A stretch of 64,000 nt of DNA from Escherichia phage JK1: the sequence record MZ436830.1. One strand, 5' to 3'. The translations under genes were made by a program, and so were the position numbers. A model generated the notes under the pieces. The model made no database searches, had not been told where the DNA came from, and was given only the letters and a program-made list of their open reading frames with translations. Shown here one piece after another: positions 35,155 through 36,365 of the stretch (within the stretch, counting starts at the first letter, position 1; the number at the start of each line of letters is the position of its first letter).

Positions 35155-35189
35155 TACCAAAAAGCCCCAACCTTTTGGTCGGGGCTAAG
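35155..35189 (-). repeat. 35-nt direct repeat, copy 1 (terminator hairpin plus U-run), downstream flank of the CTS-like ORF
   Basis: taccaaaaagccccaaccttttggtcggggctaag; 32/35 identical to 35690-35724. Confidence 0.7.
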
Positions 35190-35193
35190 AATG

Positions 35194-35655
35194 TTATTTG
35201 ATTTGTTTAGCAGACCAAATGCGATCTTTAATAATTTTTTGGATGTCTTCAACATACTCTAGGTCATGAGCATGTGGATTATCTTTGAAACTATGAGCTC
35301 GCGCAAGTTTCTGGCCTTCGGTCTTAATTATCAAAAGTTCTTTAAGAATTGCTTCATACCTAGAGATAATTCCTTTAGCAATATTTTTTTCTTGTGCTGC
35401 TTTAGGGTCAGCCTTAGGAGCAGGTTTACCAGAAGGTTTTTCGAAAGCCGCACCAGTAGCAACCAGGCTTTTCCAGGCGGTGGTAACATAGTTACCCACA
35501 AAGCCTTCAGCTCTCATATCGTCATAGAACTTGTACCGAGATTCGTCAGAAGCATCTTTATAAGAATATTTACCAGCTTTAATAGCAGCAGTTGCTACAG
35601 CGCGAACATCTGAAGCGGATGCTTCGGTCATTAAAAATTGAGCATAAGTTTTCAT
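35194..35655 (-). CDS. Candidate packaged internal protein: CTS-like N-terminus, own late promoter
   Basis: 153 aa; N-terminus MKTYAQFLMTEA (CTS-like, L-x-E site); AGGAAA ribosome-binding site; TATAAATA 28 nt upstream; flanked by direct repeats. Confidence 0.55.
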   Translation of the reverse strand: MKTYAQFLMTEASASDVRAVATAAIKAGKYSYKDASDESRYKFYDDMRAEGFVGNYVTTAWKSLVATGAAFEKPSGKPAPKADPKAAQEKNIAKGIISRYEAILKELLIIKTEGQKLARAHSFKDNPHAHDLEYVEDIQKIIKDRIWSAKQIK

Positions 35656-35683
35656 TATTATTTCCTGTGTTAATTAACTCATC

Positions 35684-35691
35684 TATTTATA
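35684..35691 (-). promoter_or_regulatory. Late promoter TATAAATA upstream of ORF 35194..35655
   Basis: Plus tatttata at 35684-35691. Confidence 0.5.
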
Positions 35692-35724
35692 CCAAAAAGC
35701 CCCAACCTTTCGGCTGGGGCTAAG
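35690..35724 (-). repeat. 35-nt direct repeat, copy 2 (terminator hairpin plus U-run), upstream flank of the CTS-like ORF
   Basis: taccaaaaagccccaacctttcggctggggctaag; hairpin 35698-35721 followed on the minus RNA by UUUUU. Confidence 0.7.
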
Positions 35725-35762
35725 CCTTGCGGCAACCTTGTCGGGGTTCCACCTGCTAAGGC

Positions 35763-36030
35763 AAGTGTTTGTACGAAACGCCGGGATTCGAACCCGGTTA
35801 TTAAGTAGTTGACGCTACTCAATATTTTTAAAAGGCCATATCTCGACCATATCCGAACGTTCCGTCAAAAACGCTACTCGGCTTATGGCAAAGATATTTC
35901 CTCGAATCGATAATTCGGTGCGCCGTTTCTGCTGTGATGTAAGAGGGCATCAATAAACGTAAAGATTATTAACGCAATTCCTTACTCAGGGAACATCAGT
36001 CCGACGACTTGCCGGTAGCGACCCGGCTTC
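35763..36030 (-). ncRNA. Possible stable small RNA(s) with tRNA-like 3' T-arm (T4 species-1/2 RNA-like), downstream of tRNA-Arg
   Basis: About 270 nt with no ORF between tRNA-Arg and the terminator; 3' end CCGGGTTCGAATCCCGG plus acceptor-like strand; cloverleaf not resolved. Confidence 0.3.
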
Positions 36031-36035
36031 TTGTC

Positions 36036-36111
36036 TGGTCGAGGCAGTAGGGATCGAACCTACGACCCAGGACTTAGAAGGTCCTTGCTCTTCCTTCTGA
36101 GCTATGCCTCG
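36036..36111 (-). tRNA. tRNA-Arg (anticodon UCU)
   Basis: Hand-folded: 76 nt, CCA encoded, anticodon loop CUUCUAA, T-arm GGTTCGATCC. Confidence 0.8.
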
Positions 36112-36115
36112 TATT

Positions 36116-36190
36116 TGGCGGACGTGATAGGATTCGAACCTATAACCAATCGCTTAACAGGCGATCGCTCTGCCATTGAGCTACACATCC
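36116..36190 (-). tRNA. tRNA-Asn (anticodon GUU)
   Basis: Hand-folded: 75 nt, CCA encoded, anticodon loop CUGUUAA, T-loop TTCGAAT. Confidence 0.7.
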
Positions 36191-36194
36191 AAAT

Positions 36195-36281
36195 TGGTGG
36201 GGAGTGGTGGAGTCGAACCACCCGAGTCGCAATGACAATGGATTTACAGTCCACACCGCTACCTCTACGGGATAACTCCCC
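36195..36281 (-). tRNA. tRNA-Tyr (anticodon GUA), long variable arm
   Basis: Hand-folded: 87 nt, anticodon stem-loop GTGGA-CUGUAAA-TCCAT, type II variable arm, CCA encoded. Confidence 0.7.
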
Positions 36282-36290
36282 AAATTAATT

Positions 36291-36365
36291 TGGTGGCCCT
36301 GGGTGGAATTGAACCACCATCTGGCGATTATGAGTCGCTTGCTTGAACCTTCCAGCTACAGGGCC
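36291..36365 (-). tRNA. tRNA with CAU anticodon (Ile via modified C34, or Met)
   Basis: Hand-folded: 75 nt, acceptor GGCCCTG/CAGGGCC, anticodon loop CUCAUAA. Confidence 0.7.

Follow-up and report, generated by a model that had tools for sequence, protein, structure and literature searches.

By sequence comparison, the stretch of DNA that follows the last tRNA gene in the tRNA cluster of Escherichia phage JK1 (MZ436830.1) encodes the orthologues of rnaD and then rnaC, the genes for the small stable RNAs of phage T4 termed species 2 and species 1, respectively. Both RNAs became known in the 1970s, i.e., about 50 years ago, and the locus, consisting of already-known T4 small RNA genes, is ordinary as a locus; the added value of the present analysis lies in the covariation-supported architectures of both RNAs, the kissing-loop prediction for rnaC and the distribution of the two genes. 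Taken jointly, the identity, the structures and the processing logic of the explanation given here are very probably correct. The window, i.e., the whole stretch of 64,000 nucleotides that was analyzed, stems from a Tequatrovirus, that is, a T4-like phage, and carries ten consecutive tRNA genes on the minus strand from 36863 to 36036, which were detected by ARAGORN and Rfam in the order Gln, Leu, Gly, Pro, Ser, Thr, Met/Ile(CAT), Tyr, Asn and Arg. The segment studied comprises the 264 nt after tRNA-Arg on the same strand (36035 to 35772), and the original prediction of a non-coding stretch of about 270 nt is in accordance with its content: no credible ORF was found when both strands were examined, and all frames across 36035-35772, on both strands, measured 23-47 aa (none above 47 aa), nearly all of them starting with TTG. 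The ten tRNAs, rnaD and rnaC share one strand, the gap between the CCA end of tRNA-Arg and the start of the rnaD homologue being about 1-2 nt, and the sole terminator comes after them. The features of the region are as follows, the coordinates of rnaD and rnaC having been transferred from the T4 and RB33 annotations via alignment A1:

36036..36111, minus strand: tRNA-Arg (anticodon TCT), last tRNA of the cluster (ARAGORN; Rfam tRNA model, 65.8 bits)
35917..36034, minus strand: rnaD homologue (T4 species 2 RNA), 118 nt, 113/119 identical to T4 (95%)
35911..35916, minus strand: AU-rich spacer GAAUUA between rnaD and rnaC, 6 nt, putative endonucleolytic processing site (alignment)
35772..35910, minus strand: rnaC homologue (T4 species 1 RNA), 139 nt, 137/139 identical to T4 (98.6%)
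35722..35771, minus strand: 3' trailer with two or three small hairpins, conserved across relatives (alignment)
35693..35721, minus strand: intrinsic terminator AGCCCCAGCC-GAAA-GGUUGGGGCU followed by UUUUU, closing the tRNA/small-RNA transcription unit

A megablast search with positions 35690-36040 (351 nt) matched 701 phage records with identities of 80-99%, almost all belonging to Tequatrovirus and its relatives. In the record of phage RB33 (KM607001), 'rnaD, species II RNA' and 'rnaC' are annotated directly downstream of tRNA-Arg, and the T4 reference (NC_000866) carries 'rnaD, small stable RNA, species 2' and 'rnaC, species 1' at the corresponding place. Since these annotations align exactly to the stretch, the leading interpretation of the original prediction, namely stable small RNAs like the T4 species 1 and 2 RNAs, was correct, and the RNAs are, by their 95% and 98.6% identity, orthologues of exactly those. 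T4 and the window have the order, strand and position after tRNA-Arg in common, and the architecture of spacer and terminator hairpin matches as well. By contrast, the rnaD 3' end reads CACCA in T4 and CACCG in the window, the spacer reads AAAUUA in T4 and GAAUUA in the window, and the upstream context of the window comprises tRNA-Tyr, tRNA-Asn and a different tRNA-Arg, whereas segB lies there in T4. The window shares its tRNA-region layout with T2L, RB1 and RB3, the tRNA regions of which, without segB, also carry the genes for RNA species I and II (PMC2330249). In T4, RNAC and RNAD are classed as late, and a Northern blot confirmed RNAC (PMC9697503). The strong terminator predicted at the end of the stretch is indeed present, with a 10-bp stem containing 7 G-C pairs (35721..35698) followed by a T run, and a terminator is annotated at the corresponding place in the record of Yersinia phage fPS-90; however, it does not follow immediately, as the 50-nt trailer (35771..35722) intervenes. 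Trailer and terminator together showed a folding z of -3.2 as compared to shuffled sequence.

The structure of rnaC was analyzed in an alignment of 22 distinct sequences from GenBank phages, IMG/VR and metagenomes (A4). As modeled, rnaC is a tRNA-shaped four-way junction, the ends of which form an acceptor-like helix stacked on a T arm, while a 70-nt irregular arm and a 26-nt hairpin take the place of the D and anticodon arms and no anticodon loop is present:

35903..35910 with 35780..35773, minus strand: acceptor-like helix, 5' strand UCGAUUCG and 3' strand CGUUUCGU, nucleotides 1-8 with 131-138 (pair counts)
35833..35902, minus strand: long arm P2-P3-P4, nucleotides 9-78, with loop L4 UUGACG at 35868..35863 (covariation)
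35799..35824, minus strand: arm P5, 10-bp stem with loop L5 CGUCAA at 35814..35809 (covariation)
35781..35797, minus strand: T arm CCGGG-UUCGAAU-CCCGG, 5-bp stem (pair counts, T-loop scan)

The rnaC sequence of the window has a minimum free energy (MFE) of -50.6 kcal/mol (z = -5.2), and none of 200 shuffled sequences folded as well. RNAalifold on A4 predicted 35 pairs, 19 of them with compensatory changes, and pair counts over a hand-written structure of 37 pairs revealed 88.9% paired cells as compared to 34-51% in slid controls, with compensatory changes at 18 of the 37 tested pairs among the 22 sequences and 0 of 500 shuffles as good. The middle of P2, where MAFFT placed the strands one column out of register between types, was excluded from these counts. 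The fact that MFE, RNAalifold and pair counts independently agree supports the four-way junction. Compensatory changes were observed at all five pairs of P4 (99% paired) and at all eight counted stem pairs of P5, and P2 and P3 covary too. The middle pair of the T stem is divided between G-C (10 sequences) and U-A (11). Within the acceptor-like helix, the pairs C2-G, G3-C, C7-G and G8-C are invariant in the 22 sequences, as are the mismatches U5.U and U6.U; pair 4 is split evenly between A-U and G-C (11 sequences each), and position 1 is mostly U.U, with A-U in three sequences. This helix hence has three non-canonical positions and one covarying pair, the latter split along one deep tree branch.

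The T-arm-like sequence and acceptor-like 3' strand that had been noticed at the end of the transcribed strand were both found from 35797..35781 onward: CCGGGTTCGAATCCCGG (CCGGGUUCGAAUCCCGG) occupies these positions on the minus strand and CGTTTCGTA (CGUUUCGUA) comes next. The T-loop core GGTTCGAATCC, with at most one mismatch, occurs eight times in the 64-kb window vs 0.64 times expected, and seven of these sites are tRNA genes, the eighth being the rnaC homologue. As for the acceptor-like 3' strand, its partner turned out to be the 5' end of rnaC, about 130 nt upstream, and not a nearby segment as in a normal-sized tRNA. A 94-nt tRNA reading, in which the internal ACGGAACG pairs with the 3' strand as in the tRNA-Sec alignment, was rejected, showing 88.6% pairing and compensatory changes at none of its eight pairs; the U-to-C change at column 138 of A4 has its counterpart at column 4 in 11/11 sequences but at column 49 in only 2/11. 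As the ACGGAACG helix has no compensatory pair of its own and takes up the 3' strand of P4, a helix with covariation at 5/5 pairs, it was rejected as the main fold; the 94-nt tRNA-like fold could be an alternative conformer in T4-type copies. Position 35772 is a discriminator-like A, after which the genome reads CAA in the window and in T4, so that no CCA is encoded, and the 3' end of Marfavirus-type rnaC is C-CAA (...GUCCAA). In rnaC of Enterobacter phage CIP9 the T stem is kept and the loop reads UGCAUGC instead of UUCGAAU, which implies that not every copy needs the T-loop. In the T4 annotation, mature rnaC has its ends at those of the acceptor-like helix, with one nucleotide added.

Loops L4 (UUGACG) and L5 (CGUCAA) are complementary at 6/6 pairs in 22/22 rnaC sequences, including five of Marfavirus type in which A46-U102 is replaced by G-C (UUGGCG/CGCCAA); the covariation between the loops thus amounts to a single compensatory event. 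L4 and L5 are predicted to form a kissing pair, either within one molecule or between two. A known loop-loop complex pairing all six nucleotides of 6-nt loops is HIV TAR/TAR*. The architecture of rnaC, i.e., a tRNA-shaped junction with kissing loops, is absent from Rfam, and no description of it was found in a literature search.

At Rfam gathering thresholds, the ten tRNAs alone were found and the rnaD/rnaC stretch was without match. Likewise, a permissive Rfam scan of 35600-36120 (E up to 10) gave no credible match over 35693..36035: the best hit was tRNA-Sec (RF01852) over 35865..35773 with 17 bits vs a threshold of 47, and the tmRNA signal was limited to a 10-bit fragment on the T loop. The tRNA model RF00005 did not match rnaD or rnaC, be it at the gathering score or with E raised to 10, and ARAGORN, which searches for tRNA and tmRNA, called nothing in the stretch. 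Hence, of the check that had been suggested, folding and a covariance-model search, the folding was favorable, as the folds beat shuffled sequences, whereas no Rfam family was matched; rnaC and rnaD appear to be without a family in Rfam 15, and two new families, one for each, would be justified. The suggestion of a degenerate or unusual tRNA could not be upheld, since ARAGORN and the Rfam tRNA model make no call and the non-tRNA arms are kept by compensatory substitutions.

Comparison with canonical tRNA (RF00005) shows that rnaC shares the four-way junction, the acceptor-like helix built from both ends, a 5-bp T stem closed by G-C (G53-C61) with the loop UUCGAAU, in agreement with UUCRANY, on which this helix is stacked, and the position in a tRNA operon with tRNA-like spacers. 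By contrast, rnaC is 139 nt long, has no D arm, no anticodon stem and no 7-nt anticodon loop, encodes no CCA, carries invariant tandem U.U mismatches in its acceptor helix and is not scored by tRNA models. The combination of threshold score, 8/5 acceptor/T arrangement and long variable arm that characterizes tRNA-Sec was not found in rnaC either. In tmRNA (SsrA), as in rnaC, acceptor helix and T arm arise where both ends of a longer RNA come together, and the junction sends out a long helix at the place of the anticodon stem; the 5' end of tmRNA is matured by RNase P (PMC3985003). However, rnaC has no mRNA-like tag reading frame or conserved ORF, no pseudoknot ring and, in place of the alanine identity pair G3.U70, a G3-C pair, and it differs furthermore by the second hairpin kissing the first. 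Lastly, rnaC, which matches no Rfam family by sequence or covariance model, may be likened to YrlA and the plant-virus tRNA-like structures. The bacterial YrlA, which is Y-RNA-like, and the plant-virus structures engage tRNA-recognizing proteins via a mimic of the T arm and acceptor, the ends of YrlA forming a Ro-binding helix rather than an acceptor mimic.

For rnaD, 23 distinct sequences were aligned (A5), and the rnaD of the window showed a folding z of -2.1 vs shuffled sequence. According to the model derived from them, rnaD consists of a 5' hairpin and a long hairpin with invariant internal-loop nucleotides and is not tRNA-like:

36011..36027, minus strand: 5' hairpin P1, GCCGG-GUCGCUA-CCGGC (per-sequence folding)
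35920..36008, minus strand: long irregular hairpin with three helices (pair counts, RNAalifold)

P1 was checked by folding each sequence individually, MAFFT having placed its strands one column out of register between types. A stable 5' hairpin was found in all sequence types but Marfavirus, where a weak 4-bp hairpin (-3.3 kcal/mol) is predicted, and the stems are unrelated between types, reading GUCAGAA-GACG-UUCUGAU in Karamvirus and UCCAUGA-GACG-UCAUGGA in Moon. Helix 1 of the long hairpin is a long-range helix of GUCGUCG (36008..36002) with CGGCGC (35925..35920), in which G-C is changed to C-G in Moon and to A-U in KpV477. Helix 2 pairs GUU/UG with CA.CAG around an invariant CCC bulge (35991..35989) and reads AAU/AUU in Karamvirus, and helix 3 (P3, GUAAG/CUUAC) closes a variable apical domain. 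Over 16 pairs, 95.1% of the cells are paired as compared to 30-52% in slid controls, nine of the 16 pairs show a compensatory change and 0 of 500 shuffles were as good. At the 3' end, T4 itself is the only phage with an A after the tail CACC, close relatives having G, C or T there and distant relatives lacking the tail; this variable or absent tail, together with the fold, indicates that rnaD is not tRNA-like. A lack of conserved secondary structure had been named, together with the lack of a discrete transcript, as what would speak against the original prediction, and conserved secondary structure was present in the form of covariation-supported folds in 22 rnaC and 23 rnaD homologues.

Distant blastn searches revealed rnaC and rnaD to be separable modules, which occur together or singly, lie in or beside tRNA gene clusters in several phage genera, and are found across at least eight genera, moving independently of any particular tRNA. 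The gene order is Phe - rnaC - Trp in Kagamiyamavirus EcS1, Met - rnaC - Gly in Moonvirus Moon and Trp - rnaC - Gly in Karamvirus Pet-CM3-4 and fGh-Ecl01, with spacers of 4-6 nt between rnaC and the tRNAs in these four phages; in EcS1, Moon and Pet-CM3-4 the 4-6 nt from the tRNA CCA end to the stand-alone rnaC are A/U-rich. Kanagawavirus and Marfavirus further possess rnaC. Conversely, rnaD without rnaC is present in Dhakavirus MX01 and SHP1, where the T4-type 3' trailer comes directly after rnaD, and in the Vequintavirinae phage A73, where rnaD lies directly after tRNA-Met. Both genes are carried, not adjacent to each other, by Moon, Karamvirus and Marfavirus, and rnaD begins 1-6 nt past a tRNA in T4, A73, Moon and Karamvirus. 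Scanning 185,579 genomes of bacteria and archaea for both patterns yielded 0 hits for rnaC and, for rnaD, 17 hits in unrelated taxa, none of which was confirmed by nhmmer (E up to 10); according to these scans, rnaC and rnaD are phage-restricted. A few additional rnaC types came from a metagenome scan. Four loci matching the rnaC pattern (L041, L042, L045, L048), three of them from the metagenome scan, were rejected as chance hits, and so were almost all of the at least 120 loci in viral contigs matching a loose rnaD pattern (loci L049-L167 were discounted), since nhmmer, among the loose matches listed, kept the known relatives and L098 and none else.

Based on the transcriptional arrangement, we propose that rnaD and rnaC would form the 3' part of a polycistronic tRNA precursor and be released by the host tRNA-processing enzymes. 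RNase P would cut at the 5' side of the rnaC acceptor-like helix, an endonucleolytic cut in the AU-rich spacer would separate rnaD from rnaC and, in the last step, rnaC would be trimmed at its 3' side back to the discriminator. The mature ends of rnaC at the acceptor-like helix plus one nucleotide are as expected from tRNA-type maturation without CCA. We infer this release from the architecture and from earlier T4 work: Abelson, McClain, Apirion and colleagues reportedly found RNase P and RNase E to be involved in the maturation of species 1 and 2 RNAs, and a dimeric species 2-species 1 precursor reportedly accumulates in RNase E mutants. The AU-rich spacer between rnaD and rnaC is presumably the site linked to RNase E. 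In our preferred reading, rnaC would be excised by tRNA-processing enzymes and mimic tRNA. With regard to function, we tentatively consider it possible that late in infection rnaC, by this mimicry, occupies or titrates a host factor recognizing the acceptor/T-arm half of tRNA, and that rnaD is a partner RNA which binds protein or acts by base pairing.

Several other explanations have to be weighed against this reading. It is hardly conceivable that the stretch is protein-coding or a decaying tRNA pseudogene: one to three 'hypothetical protein' genes are automatically annotated there in many GenBank records, but the frames are short (23-47 aa), nearly all TTG-started and spread over both strands, the substitutions among homologues are compensatory in RNA helices and not codon-patterned, and covarying non-tRNA arms would not be maintained in a pseudogene. 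Moreover, conservation is 90-99% in about 680 records, and discrete RNAs have been demonstrated in T4 (PMC9697503). The stretch should accordingly be annotated as rnaD and rnaC in place of the blank or the spurious 'hypothetical protein' found in many GenBank records. An aminoacylated, ribosome-entering rnaC, i.e., an aberrant adaptor in the form of an unusual tRNA or a tmRNA-like or tRNA-Sec-like RNA, would account for the acceptor-like helix stacked on a canonical T arm, for the weak tRNA-Sec hit of 17 bits over 35865..35773 and for the Marfavirus end ...GUCCAA, which is readable as discriminator U plus CCA. This is nevertheless very improbable given that ARAGORN is silent on both tRNA and tmRNA, that the Rfam tRNA and tmRNA models are unmatched at E up to 10 with tRNA-Sec far under its threshold of 47, and that the acceptor implied by tRNA-Sec, with 0/8 compensatory pairs, competes with P4 at 5/5. 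In addition, there is no 7-nt anticodon loop, the candidate loops being of 6 nt and pairing mutually, no tag ORF is present, and T4-type copies encode CAA instead of CCA.

Alternatively, rnaC and rnaD might have no function in trans and be structured by-products of the tRNA operon; as spacer or terminal modules, they would direct the cuts by RNase P and RNase E, shield the upstream tRNAs from 3' exonucleases and owe their stability to tight folding alone. We regard this as rather unlikely, although both RNAs are invariably located within a tRNA cluster or at its end (in T4-type phages, the last tRNA precedes them and the terminator follows), the antisense scan with two invariant rnaD motifs revealed no target in the 64-kb window, and the tRNA region is non-essential (PMC2330249). 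Contrarily, UUGACG, CGUCAA, AGGA, CCC and AUCACAG are invariant though the stems drift, which exceeds the needs of a passive spacer, both RNAs persist in at least eight genera independently of any particular tRNA, and a convergent adaptive SNP arose in rnaD on a new host (PMC12685909). Furthermore, rnaC is internal in EcS1, Moon and Karamvirus, with tRNAs on both sides, and can therefore not be a 3'-terminal protector there; these internal copies and the invariant loops weaken the notion of passive modules. It is also conceivable, but unlikely, that the RNAs, rnaD especially, are base-pairing regulatory small RNAs, the invariant unpaired motifs of which would target phage or host mRNAs and for which tRNA-type processing would only serve release. 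Regulators derived from tRNA operons are known in E. coli, and the long invariant rnaD stretches AAGUCGUCGG, GUUCCCUG and AUCACAGC are only partly paired in the consensus. Moreover, RNAC and RNAD have been termed small regulatory RNAs (PMC9697503). However, a scan of the 64-kb window for antisense sites of two invariant rnaD motifs detected self-matches and one hit with two mismatches that was within chance, i.e., no complementary site beyond chance, and the two conserved loops of rnaC complement each other and are thus not free. According to a review from 2010, no trans-acting regulatory RNA had been characterized in T4 (PMC3014915).

Returning to the preferred reading of rnaC as a processed tRNA mimic, one version of it is that rnaC is a phage-restricted junction RNA, the kissing loops of which tie its arms together or dimerize it, and that it may serve as a decoy or sponge for a host factor recognizing the acceptor/T-arm half of tRNA, for instance a defense toxin that targets tRNA, a processing enzyme or a repair enzyme. 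We consider this version speculative and rather doubtful; if it were true, species 1 and 2 RNAs would be conditional determinants of host range or counter-defense. The biological roles of the T4 species 1 and 2 RNAs are unknown (PMC3014915), and this old question of the function of RNAs that are conserved in hundreds of phages is made easier to attack by the handles added here, namely the covariation-backed structures, the kissing pair UUGACG/CGUCAA, the CCC bulge of rnaD and the distribution data. The tRNA region is dispensable for growth of T4 on laboratory hosts (PMC2330249), from which it follows that any function of rnaC and rnaD is conditional. A hint at interaction with the host comes from rnaD, in which a convergent SNP appeared in every line when a T4-like phage was evolved on E. 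coli ECOR34 (PMC12685909).

An rnaD-like RNA was detected in Escherichia phage A73 (Vequintavirinae, rV5-like), at 2497-2597 of its locus (L005) and straight after tRNA-Met. The conserved cores of this RNA are the same as those of T4 and its 5' hairpin covaries, and A73 is a carrier from outside Straboviridae, which suggests that the rnaD module was moved horizontally along with tRNA genes. A modular arrangement is also suggested 3' of rnaC, where a conserved trailer of 50 nt (35722-35771, minus strand) with small hairpins, including CACUUGC-CUUA-GCAGGUG, separates rnaC from the terminator: in the Dhakavirus phages MX01 and SHP1, rnaD is directly followed by this same trailer, as if rnaC had been cleanly inserted or excised as a module.

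The window has two nearly identical terminator hairpins, and a putative late-promoter sequence lies beside one of them:

35163-35186 and 35698-35721, minus strand: terminator hairpin AGCCCCGACCAAAAGGTTGGGGCT or the near-identical AGCCCCAGCCGAAAGGTTGGGGCT, followed by TTTTTGGTAT at each site
35691..35684, minus strand: putative late-promoter sequence TATAAATA, beside the terminator at 35698-35721

The hairpins AGCCCCGACCAAAAGGTTGGGGCT and AGCCCCAGCCGAAAGGTTGGGGCT have almost the same sequence, with TTTTTGGTAT after both, and they bracket an ORF of 153 aa (35655..35194) on the minus strand. Together, terminator and late promoter TATAAATA look like a repeated cassette.

Within rnaC, the internal sequence ACGGAACG (35858-35865, minus strand) is, in T4-type copies, fully complementary to the 3' acceptor strand at 35773-35780, forming 8 bp with one G.U pair. 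This pairing competes with the 5' end of rnaC and with helix P4 and is therefore a candidate alternative conformer or switch; cross-genus covariation gave no support to the pairing. A divergent rnaC homologue was located at about 418-562 of the Enterobacter phage CIP9 locus (L185). Its T stem CCGGG/CCCGG is kept, while the T loop reads UGCAUGC in place of UUCGAAU and CGCC is present where GGCC is invariant in other copies; CIP9 rnaC may be a decaying copy or evidence of a dispensable T-loop.

With regard to database annotation, a family for rnaC or rnaD was not found in Rfam 15, and of the phage GenBank records that match, about 700-800 in number, only a few annotate either RNA (T4, T4T, RB3, RB7, RB33, Kha5h, Aplg8 and GiZh); in many matching records the region is blank or overlaid by one to three 'hypothetical protein' genes.

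Upstream (36036-36365, minus strand), tRNA-Tyr and tRNA-Asn, together with a tRNA-Arg(TCT), separate tRNA-Met/Ile(CAT) from the small RNAs in the window, whereas T4 carries the homing-endonuclease gene segB at their place. Such an arrangement corresponds to the segB-less layout of T2L/RB1/RB3 type, where the preferred SegB cleavage site lies within the tRNA-Asn gene (PMC2330249). The tRNA-Arg(TCT) of the window shares just 42/76 identical positions with T4 tRNA-Arg. The tRNA with CAT anticodon (36291-36365, minus strand) was called Met by ARAGORN; at the matching cluster position the T4 reference annotates tRNA-Ile, whereas RB33 and fPS-90 give the label tRNA-Met.
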